DNA from: Dehalococcoidia bacterium
GTDB taxonomy: Bacteria > Chloroflexota > Dehalococcoidia > Lucifugimonadales > JADFKI01
Length of the DNA: 64,000 bases
NCBI GenBank assembly: GCA_965203895.1
Contig: CBDBDI010000003.1
Location: forward strand, 1,699,975 to 1,763,974
Direction of reading: 5' to 3'
Shown here: one piece after another, positions 21,208 to 61,395 of the stretch
Layout of the letters: each line of letters opens with the position of its first letter
How positions within the stretch are numbered: the stretch's first letter is position 1
Notes under the pieces: generated by a model
The model's database searches: none
What the model saw: the letters and a program-made list of their open reading frames with translations, nothing else
Told to the model about the DNA's origin: nothing
Position numbers and translations under genes: made by a program

Positions 21208-23787
21208 ATGACTACTCCCGTACGACGGCAATATCTGGGCGTCAAGCGCCAACACCCAAACGCAATTCTGCTGTTCCGAATGGGTGATTTCTATGAGACG
21301 TTTGACGACGACGCCCGTACCATTTCGCGCGAACTCGAGATTGCGCTCACATCGCGCGAATTCGGCAGAGGTCAGCGCGTCCCGCTTGCGGGCATACCCT
21401 ACCATGCGCTGGAATCGTACTTGGCGCGCCTCATCAAGAAGGGCTACAAGGTTGCCATCTGCGAACAGACCAGCGATCCCGCCAAATCTAGGGGTATCGT
21501 CGACCGCGAAGTGGTGCGCGTGGTTACGCCCGGCACCATCGTCGAGGATTCGCTGCTGGAGCAGAAGGCGAACAACTACTTGGCGGCGCTGATTGCAGAA
21601 GGCGATGCGGCTGGACTTGCGTATGTGGACATCACCACCAGCGAGTTCGCCACCAGCCAATTCGCGCTGGCGCAGCTCCCTGTTGAGCTTGCGCGCCTAA
21701 TGCCCTCCGAACTGATCGTCCCCGAATCGCACGCCGATATGACGCTTGAGGAAGGCGTTATGCTGACGCAGGCTGCGGATGACGCCTTTCACCCGGACTG
21801 GGCGCGCGAAACGCTGCTGAATCATTTCGGCGTGGCGTCGCTGGAAGGCTTTGGCTGCGAAAACCTGCCGCTTGCGGCGCGCGCCGCAGGCGCAGTCATC
21901 GACTACCTCACGCAAACGCAGCGCAGCGCAGTCGGACAGATAGCCGCGCTGCACACCTACTCCACATCCGAATATATGGTGCTTGACCAGCAGACGCGCC
22001 GCAACTTGGAACTCTATGAGGGCGGGCGCTGGGGCGCAGTCAACACATCGCTGTTTTCGGTGCTAGATCTGACCAAGACATCCATGGGCGGACGGCGGCT
22101 TCGGCGCTGGCTTGGGCAGCCACTGCTCGATGTGGATAGACTGGTTCTGCGTCAAGACGCCGTGGAGTGGTTTCACCGCAGCGCGCTGAGGCGCGAGCGC
22201 GTGATTATGCTGCTGGACGCCGTCGCCGATATGGAACGATTGGTGAACAAGGTGCGCGGCTTCAGTGCCACGCCGCGCGATCTGGTCAGCCTCGCCAACA
22301 GCATCGACGCAGCGCCGAAAATCCGCGACATCCTGCTCGAAGACGAGGACGCCCCGCAGGTGAGCCGAATTGCGGATCGCATCGGGGACAACGGCGAAAC
22401 TTCGGCGCTCATCAAGCGCGCCATAACAGACGATCCGCCGCTGATTGTGGGCGAAGGCAGGGTCATCCGCGAAGGCTTTTCGCCGGACTTGGACGAAGTT
22501 CGCAACGCAACCCGCAGCGCGCAAGAATACATCGCAAGCCTAGAGCAGCGCGAGCGTCGGCGCACCGGCATCAAGTCCCTGAAGGTCGGCTACAACAAGG
22601 TATTCGGCTATTACATAGAGATTAGCAATCCCAACCTATCGCAGGCGCCCAAAGACTATGTGCGGCGGCAGACGCTCGTCGGCGGCGAGCGCTTCATCAC
22701 GCCGGAGATGAAGGAGTACGAATCGCTGATTTTGAACGCCCAAGACCGAGTGAGCGAGATCGAGAATGCGCTGTTTCGACAGGTGTGCCAGCAGGTTGCC
22801 GCCGCCGCCGATCCCATAATGCAGACCGCAAGCGCCATCGCCGGCGTGGATGTGTTCGCGGCGCTGGCGGAGGTAGCCTCGCGCTACGGCTACGCCCGCC
22901 CCGCGCTGAACGAAGGCGGCGCAATAGACATTCGGCAGGGACGGCATCCGGTTGTAGAGCGAATGCTGCCGGAAGGCGATTTCGTCGCCAACGACACAAC
23001 GCTCTCTTGCAGCGACGAGCAGCTCGTAGTGCTGACCGGCCCCAATATGGCGGGCAAGTCAACCTACATCCGTCAGGTTGCGGTGATAACGCTGATGGCG
23101 CAGATTGGAAGCTTCGTGCCGGCCGATTCGGCGACGATAGGATTGTGCGACCGCATATTCACGCGCGTGGGCTTGCAGGACGATTTGGCGATGGGGCAGT
23201 CCACTTTTATGGTTGAGATGGTGGAAACGGCGTCTATCCTGAACCACGCCACGCCGCGCTCGCTGATTGTGCTGGACGAAATTGGGCGAGGCACAAGCAC
23301 ATATGACGGGCTTGCGATTGCGCGCGCCGTAGCCGAGTATGTGCATAATCATCCGCGCTTGGGCTGCAAGACGCTGTTCGCCACGCACTACCACGAACTC
23401 ACGCAGCTTGCGGACACGCTGCCGCGCGCCTGCAACTACAATGTTGCGGTTTCGGAGAACAAGGGCAGGGTAGCCTTCCTGCGGCGCATCGTGCCGGGCG
23501 GCGCGGACAAGAGCTACGGCGTGCATGTGGCGCGGCTTGCGGGAATGCCGAACGGCGTGGTCAACCGCGCTTGGGAGTTTCTAGGCGAACTCGAGGGCAG
23601 CCGCAATCGCGCAAACGGCGCGGCGCGGCGCGGCAGACGATCCGCTAAGCCGGCGCAGCAGATGCCCCTAATAGACTTCACCCCGCCCGTGGTGGACGAT
23701 ATTCTGAACCTCGAAGTAGCCGCTATGACGCCCCTAGAGGCGATCAATAAGCTTTACGAACTCCAGGAACGCGCGCGCAGCGGATAG
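21208..23787 (+). CDS. mutS: DNA mismatch repair protein MutS
   Basis: TPVRRQYLGVKRQHPNAILLFRMGDFYETF, GPNMAGKSTYIRQ Walker A, DEIGRGTSTYDG. Confidence 0.97.
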   Translation: MTTPVRRQYLGVKRQHPNAILLFRMGDFYETFDDDARTISRELEIALTSREFGRGQRVPLAGIPYHALESYLARLIKKGYKVAICEQTSDPAKSRGIVDREVVRVVTPGTIVEDSLLEQKANNYLAALIAEGDAAGLAYVDITTSEFATSQFALAQLPVELARLMPSELIVPESHADMTLEEGVMLTQAADDAFHPDWARETLLNHFGVASLEGFGCENLPLAARAAGAVIDYLTQTQRSAVGQIAALHTYSTSEYMVLDQQTRRNLELYEGGRWGAVNTSLFSVLDLTKTSMGGRRLRRWLGQPLLDVDRLVLRQDAVEWFHRSALRRERVIMLLDAVADMERLVNKVRGFSATPRDLVSLANSIDAAPKIRDILLEDEDAPQVSRIADRIGDNGETSALIKRAITDDPPLIVGEGRVIREGFSPDLDEVRNATRSAQEYIASLEQRERRRTGIKSLKVGYNKVFGYYIEISNPNLSQAPKDYVRRQTLVGGERFITPEMKEYESLILNAQDRVSEIENALFRQVCQQVAAAADPIMQTASAIAGVDVFAALAEVASRYGYARPALNEGGAIDIRQGRHPVVERMLPEGDFVANDTTLSCSDEQLVVLTGPNMAGKSTYIRQVAVITLMAQIGSFVPADSATIGLCDRIFTRVGLQDDLAMGQSTFMVEMVETASILNHATPRSLIVLDEIGRGTSTYDGLAIARAVAEYVHNHPRLGCKTLFATHYHELTQLADTLPRACNYNVAVSENKGRVAFLRRIVPGGADKSYGVHVARLAGMPNGVVNRAWEFLGELEGSRNRANGAARRGRRSAKPAQQMPLIDFTPPVVDDILNLEVAAMTPLEAINKLYELQERARSG

Positions 23788-57294: not shown

Positions 57295-57340
57295 ATTGCG
57301 AAATCCGATAATCTACTAAATAAAAGGTGAACGCTGCTAT

Positions 57341-58468
57341 ATGACAACCCTAACGCAAACAACCCCCACTACTGCCCACGAACAGCGCCGCCGCCCCACT
57401 ACGGCGAAGGTGGCGGTGGTTAGAACATCGCCGGACAGCGTTCTTGACGATATTGCGGCGGCTATGCGGATGGCGGGCTATGAGCGGGCGCTGCCGCAGG
57501 GCGTTCCCACGCTGCTGAAGGTCAACACCTCTTGGCAGCACTACTATCCCGCCTGCTCTACATCGCCTTGGCAGCTTGACGGCGCAATTAGGGCGCTGAA
57601 GGCGGACGGCTATCGGGACATCATCCCGGCGCACAACGGCACGGTGGTGGTGGACGCCAAGGTTGGCGTGGTCAACAACAAGCATAAGCCGGTTGAGGAT
57701 ATGCACGGGCTTGAGGCGCTGCATCTTGAGGATGCGGAGTGGGTGGACTTTCGGCCGGAGGCGCGGATGTTGGCGCTCGACGGCGTGTATCCCGACGGGT
57801 TTCGCATTCCCAAGGCGTTTATCGGCAAGAATGTGCTGCATCTGCCCACGATGAAGACGCATGTGTTCACCACGATTACGGGCGCTATGAAGAACGCATT
57901 CGGCGGGCTGCTGAACCACAACCGCCATTGGACGCACGCCGCCATTCATGAAACGCTGGTGGATCTTTTGCAGATACAGCAGCAGATCCATCCGGGCATA
58001 TTCGCGGTAACGGACGGCACATTCGCAGGGGACGGGCCGGGGCCGCGCGCGATGCGCTGGCACGCCAAGAACGTCATCCTCGCAAGCGCGGATCAGGTAG
58101 CCATAGACGCCGTGTCCGCCAAGATGATGGGCTTTGACCCGATGAGCGTCAAGTTCATATGGATGGCGCACGAATTGGGGCTGGGCTGTGGCGATATGCG
58201 GGACATAGAGGTTGTGGGGGAAGACATATCGGGCGTGAACTGGCGCTTCAGCGGCGGCGAAAACACGCTGTTCAGCCGCGGACAAAAGTCGGTGTACTGG
58301 GGCCCGTTCAAGCCGCTTGAGACGGCGATAGCGCGCTCGCCGCTGGTGAACTTGGCGATAGCGGCGTCCAACATCTACCACAACGGCTACTGGCTGCCGC
58401 TGAAGGGGCGCAAGCGCGTGCAGGAAGCGATGCAAACGGACTGGGGCAGGCTGTTTCAGAGCTACTGA
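57341..58468 (+). CDS. DUF362 domain-containing protein
   Basis: KVAVVRTSPDSVLDDI...LLKVNTSW...TSPWQLDGAIRALKADGY...TMKTHVFTTITGAMKN. 375 aa. Confidence 0.6.
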   Translation: MTTLTQTTPTTAHEQRRRPTTAKVAVVRTSPDSVLDDIAAAMRMAGYERALPQGVPTLLKVNTSWQHYYPACSTSPWQLDGAIRALKADGYRDIIPAHNGTVVVDAKVGVVNNKHKPVEDMHGLEALHLEDAEWVDFRPEARMLALDGVYPDGFRIPKAFIGKNVLHLPTMKTHVFTTITGAMKNAFGGLLNHNRHWTHAAIHETLVDLLQIQQQIHPGIFAVTDGTFAGDGPGPRAMRWHAKNVILASADQVAIDAVSAKMMGFDPMSVKFIWMAHELGLGCGDMRDIEVVGEDISGVNWRFSGGENTLFSRGQKSVYWGPFKPLETAIARSPLVNLAIAASNIYHNGYWLPLKGRKRVQEAMQTDWGRLFQSY

Positions 58469-58636
58469 CGCGCATATTCGGCATAACCGCGCTTGCGTCC
58501 ACCGCCGTTTGGCGCGATAATCGCGCGCGTTGTGAGCGCGTCCGAACATAGCCAACCTTCCGCCGATAGCGGTCGCGCGTCCAAATCCCGCGCATCCGAG
58601 CCTGCGTCCGAGCAGACCGATGTGAACGCAAGCGGT

Positions 58637-58658
58637 GTCCCTCGCGCGCGCGAGGGAC
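58637..58658. repeat. perfect 22-nt GC palindrome
   Basis: GTCCCTCGCGCGCGCGAGGGAC is its own reverse complement. It lies 8 nt upstream of the C tract. Confidence 0.95.
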
Positions 58659-58666
58659 TGGAAAAT

Positions 58667-58690
58667 CCCCCCCCCCCCCCCCCCCCCCCC
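58667..58690 (+). repeat. homopolymeric tract, 24 consecutive C
   Basis: Counted directly: gaaaat-C24-gacttgaag. Confidence 0.95.
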
Positions 58691-58887
58691 GACTTGAAGC
58701 CAGGGCGAATTCCCAAAATTCGCAGACAAGCTCATTCGGCTCGCCGGGCAGGCGCGGCCACGATGCAACCCGCTTCTACGCAAGCCGTCTCTACGAAGGG
58801 CTGCCGTCCGAGCGCAATGCGCCGTATGTAGAAAATCCGCTGCCGCCCGGCGTCGCCAACACCATATTCGCCGAGTCCGCCGAGCAG

Positions 58888-59682
58888 ATGAGCGCGCTGC
58901 CCGATTGCAGCGTCCACCTGATGGTAACCTCGCCGCCCTACAATGTGGGCAAGGACTACGACGACGACCTGACGCTTGGCGAGTACCGCGATTTTCTGAT
59001 CCGCGTGATGCGCGAGGTATATCGCGTACTGACGCCGGGCGGCCGCGTGTGCTTCAACATCGCCAATCTCGGACGCCGCCCGTATTTGCCGCTGCACCGC
59101 TATATCATCGAAGACCTGATGGCGTTAGGCTTTCTGATGCGCGGCGAAATCATCTGGGACAAGAGCGCAAGTTCGGCGTCATCTACGGCGTGGGGAAGCT
59201 GGCGCTCGGCGGCGAATCCCGTGCTGCGCGACGAACACGAATACATCCTGGTGTGCTGCAAAGACACCTACAAGCGCCCAAAGGTGGCGGGCAAGGCGTC
59301 CACCATTGAGCGCGACGACTTCTTGGAATGGACGCGCAGCGTTTGGCGCTTCCCGGCGGTGTCCGCGCGGCGGATTGGGCATCCGGCGCCGTTCCCCACT
59401 GAGCTGCCGCGCCGCTGCATCCAACTCTACACCTACGCCGATGAGGTTGTGCTGGATCCGTTCATGGGCAGCGGCACCACTGCGATAGCGGCGCTGGAGG
59501 CGGGCAGGCGCTTCGTGGGCTATGAGATTTCCGACGAGTACCGCGAACTGGCGCAAAAGCGGCTTGCGGCCGCGCCCAAGCTTTTCGCGCATACGGACGC
59601 CGGCGGTCGAGTGATTGCGGAGGGGCGCGATGCCGACTACTCTGTAAATGCGCCCGGCGATGCGGGAGGTGTGTCGAGATGA
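58888..59682 (+). CDS. beta-class N4-cytosine/N6-adenine DNA methyltransferase (minimum extent; the conserved sequence continues upstream without a start codon)
   Basis: SVHLMVTSPPY (motif IV) near the N-terminus and VLDPFMGSGTTAIAA (motif I) near the C-terminus. The frame stays open back to 58570. Confidence 0.85.
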   Translation: MSALPDCSVHLMVTSPPYNVGKDYDDDLTLGEYRDFLIRVMREVYRVLTPGGRVCFNIANLGRRPYLPLHRYIIEDLMALGFLMRGEIIWDKSASSASSTAWGSWRSAANPVLRDEHEYILVCCKDTYKRPKVAGKASTIERDDFLEWTRSVWRFPAVSARRIGHPAPFPTELPRRCIQLYTYADEVVLDPFMGSGTTAIAALEAGRRFVGYEISDEYRELAQKRLAAAPKLFAHTDAGGRVIAEGRDADYSVNAPGDAGGVSR

Positions 59683-60356
59683 ACGATGCACTCGTGCGCC
59701 TGTTGAAAGATGATAACTATGTGAAACTGCTGCAAAACAGCTTGCCGCGCGCGTTTGAGGTTGCGGACGCAGAAAGCCGCCGCATACAGCAGCGAAAGGG
59801 CGGCGCTACATACGAAGCCGTTGGGCAAGAAGTCGGGGTAGTCAGAGAAAAGATTATCGTTGCGTTTCTGCGATACAGCCTAGGCGATATGAACGTTGAG
59901 TTGCCCAGGTCGAATACTGCGATGCGCGATGTGCTTATATTCGGCGAACCGCTTGAGATTAAGACTGCCACGGGCAGCGGCGCCGTAAAAGTTAAGTGGA
60001 CTGCCGATGCAGAATCGGCTCAGCGGGACATAGAAAACTTTCGGTTCACTTCGGACTTGCTGCTGATACGAATATGGTGGGACAAGAATGCCGACAGCGT
60101 ATTCTACATTCCGAAAGATGTCTTGAACGGACTTGCCGACGTCTATTCTAGCGCCGCAGGTTTTTTGCAGAGCAGCAGAGGGACAAACAATCGCGGCATA
60201 AATATCAGGCAAGCGTTTATCAGCAAGGCAGAGAACCACAGTAAAACCTTCCGAATTCGGATTCACTGGAAACGGATTGGGATACGGATTGACCCAATGG
60301 CTCGCTGGATGGCTTATTGGGCAGACCGCCGCGACAGGGATCCGCTGTACGGGTAG
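59679..60356 (+). CDS. putative type II restriction endonuclease partner (PD-ExK-like)
   Basis: The ATG overlaps the MTase stop (ATGA). RDVLIFGEPLEIKT gives a D...ExK arrangement. AT-richer than its surroundings. The family was not recognised. Confidence 0.5.
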   Translation: MNDALVRLLKDDNYVKLLQNSLPRAFEVADAESRRIQQRKGGATYEAVGQEVGVVREKIIVAFLRYSLGDMNVELPRSNTAMRDVLIFGEPLEIKTATGSGAVKVKWTADAESAQRDIENFRFTSDLLLIRIWWDKNADSVFYIPKDVLNGLADVYSSAAGFLQSSRGTNNRGINIRQAFISKAENHSKTFRIRIHWKRIGIRIDPMARWMAYWADRRDRDPLYG

Positions 60357-60456
60357 CCTTACTCCGTATGCTATAATCCACCGCACATGTATATCGCTGT
60401 GTATCGGCCAACGATTGCGGCGGGATTTCGGACGGAGGCGCGCTGTGCGAAAGTAG

Positions 60457-60675
60457 GTTGTTGAGCATACATCGCCGCTTGATGCGCTGATTGGCTTGGC
60501 GAAGCGGCTTGCCGAGTATGAGATTCGGCACGGCTTGGAGTCTGAAGACTTCTTCAATCGCTACACGCGGGGCAAGCTTGGGGATGACGCGCCGTATGTG
60601 GAGTGGGCGAATGACTATCGGCACTGCCTTGACATTCGCTGCGATTTGGAAGAGCGCCTGAGAGACGCGGCATAG
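60457..60675 (+). pseudogene. N-terminally truncated small antitoxin-like ORF
   Basis: ...LAKRLAEYEIRHGLESEDFFNRYTRGKLGDDAPYVEWANDYRH... From memory, it resembles the C-terminal half of small TA-associated proteins with the (G)MSSEEFY..(F)..GELGDD.D...W motif. There is no ATG or GTG, and the only in-frame start is TTG 60496. Confidence 0.3.
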
Positions 60676-60879
60676 CGTCTTGTCCTAGTATCTTGTGAAT
60701 GCGGCGTAGCAGTCGAGAACGCCGCGCGCCGCTTTTGCGATACGCCCAGTTTGGCTTATCGCTTATGTCCATGAGATAGGCGGGAGCGGCGCAGCTACTC
60801 ATCGATTCTCACAAGCGGGCGGGGACTATTGCTTTCGACAACGCGTCGGATCTACCCAAAGCAATAGGAAGGTGGTATC

Positions 60880-61395
60880 TTGACTGCAAAGAAAAGTAGA
60901 GGATTTCTTGCCCTTGAGAATTACCTGGCGGCCGATCACATCTGGGCTTACATCATTCAGATGGCTGCATGGACGTATGTAATGTTCCAGACGATAGACG
61001 CGCCGTTCATAAGCGTTCAGTGGGTTGTCGCTTATGTGCGTGAGACAAATGGGGCGGCGCAGCTGTTCGTCTTGACGACCATAATCGGCGTGAACATATG
61101 GAGGATTGCCGTGAAGTTCTGGCAGGAGAGGGTTAAGAGCGTAAAGGAACAGGTGGATGAGGGCAAGGCGGAAGGCAGAAACGAAGTGATAACGGCGCTT
61201 CGGAAGGGCGGCATGAGTAGGGATCAGATCAACGCCGTTCTTATTCGGTCAGGCGACAAAGATCTCATCTCTGAGATCACACTCGAAGATGCTTCTGACG
61301 CATTCATGGAAGCGTTTCTTGAGGCGGCGAATCGTATAAACGCCGCTTCGGAAAAGACCGACCACAAAGCCGAAAAATCTGAATCAGAGCTTTAG
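60880..61395 (+). CDS. hypothetical membrane protein (2 TM plus charged helical tail)
   Basis: TTG start after GGAAGGTGG. TM segments are IWAYIIQMAAWTYVMF and AAQLFVLTTIIGVNIWRIAV. Confidence 0.45.
   Translation: MTAKKSRGFLALENYLAADHIWAYIIQMAAWTYVMFQTIDAPFISVQWVVAYVRETNGAAQLFVLTTIIGVNIWRIAVKFWQERVKSVKEQVDEGKAEGRNEVITALRKGGMSRDQINAVLIRSGDKDLISEITLEDASDAFMEAFLEAANRINAASEKTDHKAEKSESEL

Follow-up and report, generated by a model that had tools for sequence, protein, structure and literature searches.

A length-variable poly-C tract as a probable slipped-strand switch of a Type II DNA methyltransferase gene in a Dehalococcoidia bacterium

Introduction

Repeat slippage as a source of phase variation is mostly seen as a strategy of pathogens adapted to a host, and surveys of phase-variable methylases have focused on restriction-modification (R-M) systems of Type I and Type III. 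The subject here is a run of 24 cytosines (C24) in the 5' part of a Type II DNA methyltransferase (MTase) gene, which is followed by the gene of a restriction endonuclease. It lies in a 64,000-nucleotide stretch of a Dehalococcoidia genome (contig CBDBDI010000003.1, positions 1,699,975 to 1,763,974 of the forward strand), which is called the window hereafter and whose first letter is position 1. Well-known cases of homopolymer switches in R-M genes come from Neisseria, Haemophilus, Helicobacter, and Campylobacter (PMC5909438, PMC8355987, PMC4209511, PMC7494987).

Among the described systems, NlaIV of Neisseria gonorrhoeae and Neisseria meningitidis resembles the present locus in being a Type II system with separate modification (M) and restriction (R) genes, in its homopolymer within the 5' coding region and in the occurrence of frameshifted ON and OFF alleles in the population (bioRxiv 10.64898/2026.01.10.698759). 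There, both nlaIV_E and nlaIV_M carry tracts, and it is the endonuclease (poly-T, about 9 nt) that switches, nearly all isolates having M on (bioRxiv 10.64898/2026.01.10.698759). In phasevarions, e.g., those of the Type III mod genes modA and modH, repeats likewise slip within a DNA MTase gene, which there switches methylation genome-wide (PMC5909438; reference 51 of PMC3711429). Campylobacter jejuni and Helicobacter pylori share with the present genome the presence of many 5' G/C homopolymers at genes for surface structures, glycosyltransferases and R-M systems (PMC8355987, PMC4209511, PMC7494987). Moreover, CGCG-specific R-M systems of the ThaI/FnuDII/BstUI type place a full-length R protein of family PF15514 beside a Type II MTase, as does the locus treated here, for which CGCG specificity is predicted. 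A literature search on homopolymer phase variation in Chloroflexi and Dehalococcoidia found no report.

A poly-C tract between start codon and methyltransferase core

The C tract most probably represents a DNA-level slipped-strand ON/OFF switch of the MTase gene, a reading to which we assign a probability of roughly 70% on the basis of sequence comparison. A preliminary description of this DNA had pointed to the tract, to a perfect 22-nt GC palindrome upstream of it and to the 8 nt between the two (TGGAAAAT), and all of these coordinates were right on re-reading of the sequence. Its account of the frames held as well: a frame scan finds the MTase frame open from 58570 and free of ATG, GTG and TTG codons before ATG 58888, and with 24 C both upstream GTG frames abort. 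In the frame of GTG 58622, the tract amounts to eight CCC (proline) codons and translation then runs into a TAG (58829-31), and the frame of GTG 58635 ends at TGA 58695-97. By frame arithmetic, the native start frame joins the MTase frame with 22 or 25 C and misses it with 24 C. The proposed fusion lengths therefore stand in part: 22/25 C for GTG 58622 is borne out by a strain with C22 in frame (L103, see below), whereas 23/26 C via GTG 58635 falls away because this codon is not the native start. GTG 58635 was rejected as a second native start, as it rests on a non-conserved synonymous GGT/GGC difference and is missing in most relatives. A simple base composition of about 0.3 C predicts some 1e-6 runs of this length in 3.28 Mb; hence, C24 is not a product of chance.

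Evidence comes from strains of the same species, for which the window was compared with nine further loci. Tracts range from C13 to C27, with five loci in frame (ON) and five out of frame (OFF). The ON loci feature C13 (L104), C16-A-C7 (L109), C22 (L103), C23 (L001, with a different flank) and C27 (L102). OFF are C14 in L105, a 3.279-Mb circular contig of 90x coverage, C14 in L106 and L107, which are agreeing ENA and Logan assemblies possibly made from the same reads, C23 in L108 and C24 in the window. In the alignment the flanks are 89% identical, and most of the variation in length from locus to locus is due to the tract. L103 has exactly the flank of the window (..GGAAAAT) and thus shows, as a naturally occurring allele, that the frame is restored by C22. 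An invariant tract length, which had been named beforehand as an observation that would speak against switching, is thus not what conspecific strains present.

Every OFF locus retains an intact core of 295-329 codons. The ratio of non-synonymous to synonymous substitution rates (dN/dS) of the core between conspecific loci amounts to 0.07-0.18 at dS 0.10-0.26, with OFF-OFF pairs no different from the others; L109 was left out of this comparison, its interrupted tract being out of register. Judged by this substitution pattern, the MTase gene is not a decaying pseudogene, and its core is under purifying selection also in OFF lineages. Several properties of contingency loci are thereby found together. 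A long uninterrupted repeat lies within the reading frame of an otherwise intact gene, and a change of repeat number flips the frame, both by arithmetic and by the comparison of L103 (C22, ON) with the window (C24, OFF). In addition, repeat number is polymorphic among close strains with conserved flanks, and purifying selection persists despite OFF alleles, which implies reversibility.

The tract is not confined to one species. In a scan with one genome per species, a C run was found in eight other genomes, located 230-233 nt before the codons for PPYNVGK (330 nt in L004). Its length is C15 in L002 and L006, C21 in L008, C23 in L005, C24 in L013, C29 in L004 and C32 in L009, a record labelled Limisphaerales; L003, a metagenome-assembled genome (MAG) from Illumina reads and SPAdes, has C12 and is cut at the 5' end, so that its state is not scorable. 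Three of the seven scorable loci are ON and four are OFF. In a family tree of 79 members, for which 88 loci were entered and partial sequences dropped, every tract-bearing gene falls into one clade, which spans at least nine species and includes a single loss (L007). CCC makes up about 39% of the proline codons of the genome, and the pure run was kept through 25-35% protein divergence; therefore, selection appears to act on the repeat itself, or the repeat is continually regenerated, rather than prolines being selected for. The slipped-strand interpretation, which had already been put forward in the preliminary description, is consequently supported by the ON and OFF lengths of conspecifics, the conserved flanks, the intact and selected cores and the clade of tract-bearing genes. 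As a separate observation, the nearest relative of the L008 MTase (Dehalococcoidia, C21) is that of L009 (OZ241891.1), a 4.2-Mb chromosome labelled Verrucomicrobiota with C32 at the equal position, and this similarity suggests a recent transfer of gene and tract across phyla.

According to the proposed mechanism, translation would start upstream (GTG 58532 or 58622) and read the tract as poly-proline within a length-tolerant tail, entering the conserved MTase core eight codons after the tract. Slipped-strand mispairing in replication would alter the number of C. Lengths of 3k+1 (22, 25) would give the full-length MTase (ON), and the others, including 24, would end at TAG 58829 (OFF). Such switching may be frequent and reversible within a population, with phage or foreign DNA as the possible selective agent.

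The methyltransferase and its N-terminus

The MTase frame matches PF01555 (N6/N4 DNA methylase; 4.9e-45) over positions 1-221 of 221. The enzyme belongs to the beta class of N4/N6 MTases with SPPY as motif IV and a C-terminal FMGSG as motif I, both invariant in the homologues. Its nearest solved structures in the PDB are a Thermus modification methylase and N4-cytosine MTases. Together with the SPPY motif, these structures suggest that the product is probably N4-methylcytosine (m4C). As in Type II systems, the MTase is a separate protein with an (S/D)PP(Y/F) motif IV and an FxGxG motif for S-adenosylmethionine, and a stand-alone restriction endonuclease adjoins it.

That a genuine MTase N-terminus precedes ATG 58888 had been proposed from the translation and is corroborated by three lines of evidence. 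The best PADLOC model (MTase_II PDLC03350, 1.7e-125) covers residues 6-290 and starts about 58 residues upstream of this codon. Upstream of the methionine it encodes (M64) lies the block FGSPGRRGHD..FYA.RLY..YVENP, in which F, G, R, H, F, Y, Y, and E are invariant in 34 homologues. Furthermore, an AlphaFold2 model gives residues 41-63, directly before M64, a predicted local distance difference test score of about 95 and places a beta-strand at 55-57. ATG 58888 as the real start of a short active enzyme is accordingly unlikely, as far as conservation and modelling indicate, since the upstream 60 or so residues are conserved or part of the family model and 41-63 are confidently folded.

Gene calls in the protein collection agree with a start upstream. 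The cluster comprises 44 sequences of at least 90% identity, called at lengths of 253, 264, 343, 345, 381, 384, and 395 aa. The long forms (343-395 aa; from relatives of 96% identity) read ..VNASGVPRAREG.EN-(P)4-8-RLEARANSQ.., i.e., the GTG 58622 frame, the C run as prolines and the MTase frame. The 253- and 264-aa forms begin at the methionine equivalent to ATG 58888 and are, as their sequences indicate, gene calls on frameshifted (OFF) alleles. Since gene callers annotate such truncated 253/264-aa proteins, switches of this kind are systematically hidden in MAG annotations. The earlier suggestion to check where homologues start is thereby answered: it is not at the equivalent of ATG 58888, and the closest clade extends upstream through the poly-proline encoded by the C run. 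Relatives outside the tract clade lack the prolines, and their proteins begin about 10 residues ahead of the conserved block. Hence, the tract constitutes an insertion into an N-terminal tail that can be dispensed with, and poly-proline is not needed by the enzyme.

Start codon, promoter region and palindromes

The features of the locus are compiled in Table 1. Within the species, GTG 58532 is most likely the native start, judging from its conservation and from coding constraint: over the 30 codons that follow it (58532-58621), the ratio of non-synonymous to synonymous polymorphism (pN/pS) is 0.39 in the start frame and 0.80 and 4.5 in the other two. The ON/OFF logic is unaffected by the choice of start, because TTG 58493, GTG 58532, and GTG 58622 share one frame.

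Table 1. Sequence features of the locus (positions in the window unless marked C3).
Feature	Position	Strand	Remarks
72-nt conserved block	58486-58557	+	100% conserved among nine conspecific loci (alignment); exceeds conservation of adjoining coding DNA
Sigma-70-like promoter candidate	TTGCGT 58493-98, 17-nt spacer, GATAAT 58516-21	+	hexamers read by eye in the conserved block
15-nt palindrome GCGCGATAATCGCGC	58512-58526	.	-10-like box at centre, with CGCG, the presumed target of the system, on either side
GTG, most likely native start	58532-58534	+	invariant in species; homologous to TTG in CGCGCGTTTTG of other species
GTG, alternative start	58622-58624	+	chosen by gene callers in relatives (MNASGVPR...)
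Perfect 22-nt GC palindrome GTCCCTCGCGCGCGCGAGGGAC	58637-58658	.	within coding region, codons VPRAREG; three overlapping CGCG sites
C24 homopolymer	58667-58690	+	between native start (GTG 58532 or 58622) and MTase core; direct sequence reading
MTase core frame, 330 codons	58690-59682	+	CGA 58690 to TGA 59680-82; Pfam, PADLOC, motifs
TAG stop of native start frame	58829-58831	+	at present tract length (OFF)
ATG, internal methionine	58888-58890	+	M64 counted from 58699; invariant in family
GGGAGG Shine-Dalgarno of endonuclease gene	59664-59669	+	within 3' end of MTase gene
ThaI-like Type II restriction endonuclease, 225 aa	59679-60356	+	ATG overlaps MTase stop (ATGA); intact
Example G/C runs	C3 373049, 744440, 1190059, 1587558, 2073365, 2532774, 2643940, 3012357, 3079951, 3162886		outside window

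The conserved block 58486-58557 may hold a sigma-70-like promoter. A consensus scan of 58380-58920 for promoters and terminators returned no site, the candidate -35 hexamer matching in just 3/6 positions and thus staying under the scan threshold. In other species, too, the palindromic GCGCGATAATCGCGC motif lies shortly before the start; its 19-nt full form has one exact copy in the genome, besides two looser copies with 2 differing positions. These features suggest a candidate operator or a methylation-sensitive promoter element; CGCG methylation or the binding of a regulator might govern its activity. The 22-nt palindrome is unique in the genome, and the window copy folds as RNA with z = -2.55. 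Its stem is enlarged in L001, altered in L104 and broken in L105. Although strong in the window, the hairpin is not consistently conserved, and no role was assigned to it. An Rfam search of 57300-61000 (E <= 1) gave no RNA family.

Restriction gene and locus context

The endonuclease matches PF15514 (ThaI) with 2.7e-32 over positions 1-202 of 203 and the PADLOC model REase_II with 7.9e-31, and its gene has no homopolymer of at least 7 nt. The locus is a Type II R-M operon of two genes in the order M, R; it is ThaI-like and, by family name, its target is probably CGCG. On the chromosome there are 44,678 CGCG sites, which is 0.68 of the Markov expectation and thus a mild depletion. Upstream, the locus is preceded by dnaG, rpoD and a DUF362 gene, and argJ and argB follow downstream. 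The order rpoD, DUF362, M, R, argJ and the position of the tract are common to all 10 conspecific contigs, which derive from several samples and assemblers, so that the chromosomal setting of the system is a stable one. Some of the record names point to marine-sponge metagenomes as a possible habitat.

The R slot itself is variable. Behind an MTase of about 96% identity, it holds three unrelated proteins, both across strains of one species and across the clade: the ThaI-like protein of about 225 aa (window 59679-60356), one of about 231 aa (L103:2636-3331) and one of about 320 aa (L102:2513-3475). The latter two have no match in Pfam, PADLOC or the PDB. This pattern looks like a swapping of restriction-gene cassettes behind one methylase.

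Weighing of the switch against other explanations

Several observations weigh against a slipped-strand switch. The C24 call of the window could be off by one, and 25 C would be ON. ON loci make up 8 of the 17 that can be scored, a share not clearly apart from the random 1/3 or from what mixed selection would give. The genome encodes both MutS and MutL, so that slippage is not boosted by missing mismatch repair. The difficulty lies in the R gene, which is tract-free, has a strong Shine-Dalgarno sequence of its own and is undamaged in each of the eight genomes with M OFF. Cells truly M-OFF and R-ON should die, and some unseen factor must therefore protect OFF cells if the switch is real; how loss of the protecting methylase is tolerated is the puzzle of this locus. 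There are four possible ways out. The OFF state may also lower R expression, as the two genes overlap, about 850 nt would be left untranslated before R and Rho-dependent polarity could then silence it. Other MTases may protect the CGCG sites and let OFF cells survive, RNA polymerase or ribosome slippage may supply some of the enzyme whatever the tract length, or the out-of-frame calls may be wrong.

The last of these possibilities leads to the alternative that survives best, i.e., a gene that is always on. The tract would then encode a variable poly-proline linker that is truly in frame at all times, and the out-of-frame lengths would stem from mistakes in sequencing or assembly. Every platform is prone to errors in long homopolymers, and the window needs merely one additional C for frame; nevertheless, OFF alleles include the easier short tracts, viz., C14 in the 90x circular contig and C14 in both the ENA and the Logan assembly of one strain, and out-of-frame tracts make up about half of the 17 loci, which come from different projects. 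Low dN/dS everywhere and an intact R in every apparently OFF genome are what would be expected with M really on. Protein constraint alone, in turn, would not hold 4-10 consecutive CCC codons at the given proline codon usage, and the tract-less relatives show that prolines are unneeded. Altogether, a permanently active gene is considered unlikely.

Somewhat less probable still is a function of the tract as a rheostat, in which RNA polymerase slippage or ribosomal frameshifting would yield some MTase at any length and the tract would tune the M:R ratio; poly-proline stalling dependent on elongation factor P (EF-P) could add to this. For long homopolymers, slippage during transcription has been established, chiefly on A/T runs (PMC3711429); on C/G runs it is less documented. 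An intact R alongside an out-of-frame M would be explained in this way, and EF-P is encoded in the genome. Such a tuning is, however, compatible with DNA-level switching and would modify its consequences.

It is very improbable that a DNA or RNA structure (promoter spacing, a G-quadruplex or an i-motif) controls transcription of an MTase starting at ATG 58888. The G24 of the template strand could form a quadruplex, the GC hairpin lies 8 nt upstream and the 264-aa product contains the whole Pfam domain. Nevertheless, the conserved promoter-like block and the start lie upstream of the tract, which is translated in ON relatives; this also disposes of the promoter-spacing alternative that accompanied the first description. 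In addition, the residues before M64 are conserved in 34 homologues, included in the PADLOC model and, for 41-63, confidently folded, and the hairpin is not conserved. A mis-join or chimera at a poly-C read end, which had likewise been considered at the outset, or a dead gene remnant has a negligible probability: general homopolymer risk alone favours it, and it is refuted by relatives, as synteny and tract position are equal in the 10 conspecific contigs, the tract recurs at the equal position in 8 other-species assemblies from different assemblers and the core is intact under purifying selection.

Poly-C tracts in the genome and the genus

A long C tract had been thought unusual in a high-GC genome, which does not apply here. 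The genome (3.28 Mb, 60% GC) carries 33 G/C runs of at least 9 nt, 20 of which reach at least 12 nt, with G26 as the maximum; A/T runs do not exceed 9 nt. Most of them are coding-strand poly-C between a leader with Shine-Dalgarno sequence and ATG, such as ATGTCGAAGAATATACGTTTTA, and the part encoding a signal peptide or membrane anchor. The genes concerned encode seven paralogous secreted DYDSDNDG proteins (with a GLUG motif match in one tested member), five secreted RCC1-repeat proteins (a subtilase domain in two of three tested), six proteins that have an N-terminal anchor and belong to no known family, a family of small open reading frames and a GT2 glycosyltransferase. By analogy with the usual make-up of phase-variable genes, the 33 runs look like a genome-wide set of contingency loci. 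In two large families, almost all copies are out of frame in the assembly when read from the obvious starts, and as length errors are possible at C19-C26, this count is not leaned on. Identical leaders occur in sister species, where the tracts are C25 and C16, both in frame, and C23. Of 21 other genomes of the genus, 11 contain runs of at least 14 C, and such runs also occur in several further families of the order; absence from fragmented assemblies may be technical.

Further observations concern the same families and similar runs. The DYDSDNDG/GLUG family has 39 and 56 matches in the sister species G007 and G011 (e.g., L110-L124), with frames of 1200-1600 aa in some members and internal stops in several. 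Besides, two mid-gene G runs (C3:89563-89579 and 1433269-1433278) split long open reading frames; the removal of one base each would restore a 931-aa frame and a 610-aa arylsulfotransferase-like frame.

Regarding the cellular background, mutS is intact within the window (21214-23766) and mutL lies at C3:1674403-1675938, and genes for Rho and EF-P are present. Methylase domains are numerous, with 52 matches to PF01555 and 6 to PF00145 (5-methylcytosine), many of them in open frames of 450-630 aa, which makes the genome exceptionally methylase-rich. GGCC reaches just 0.28 of the Markov expectation, a strong avoidance, and CCGG stands at about 0.68; the avoidance of GGCC suggests a long-standing restriction pressure of the HaeIII type.

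Significance and comparison with known systems

Chances appear about even that the locus represents a clade-wide maintained poly-C switch in the M gene of a Type II system with three unrelated R-slot nucleases, embedded in a genus-wide set of at least 20 poly-C contingency loci that comprises surface-protein families and a glycosyltransferase. If true, this would be the first phase-variable gene set described in Chloroflexota. It would imply survival of M-OFF cells with an intact R, e.g., by obligatory polarity, by transcriptional slippage or by back-up from some of the approximately 50 other MTase-domain matches. Should reads confirm the switching, contingency-locus biology would extend to a new phylum and lifestyle, and a true switch would suggest phage pressure behind a combinatorial variation of surface and defence.

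Compared with NlaIV, the tract is found solely in M, consists of poly-C of 12-32 nt and leaves R intact, and the host is an uncultured Chloroflexota bacterium instead of a human pathogen. Phasevarions differ in other respects. The MTase considered here is a PF01555 Type II enzyme beside a stand-alone ThaI-like endonuclease, and not a Type III mod or Type I hsdM/hsdS product. In Type III systems, Res needs Mod and a Mod-OFF state is harmless, whereas R is an independent Type II enzyme in the present case. Moreover, the beta-class SPPY MTase (probably m4C) contrasts with the N6-methyladenine-forming Mod of phasevarions.

The tracts of C. jejuni and H. pylori mostly measure 8-13 nt and reside in AT-rich genomes without MutSL, whereas those described here reach up to 26 nt (32 nt in relatives) in a genome of 60% GC with MutS and MutL. 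Furthermore, the runs are, unlike in these two species, almost always coding-strand poly-C and lead to N-terminal poly-proline. In contrast to the ThaI/FnuDII/BstUI type, the same MTase clade pairs elsewhere with two unrelated R-slot genes. The locus thus differs from the known cases in that the switched gene is the M of a stand-alone Type II pair, with a much longer tract, intact mismatch repair, clade-wide conservation and a host of another phylum.

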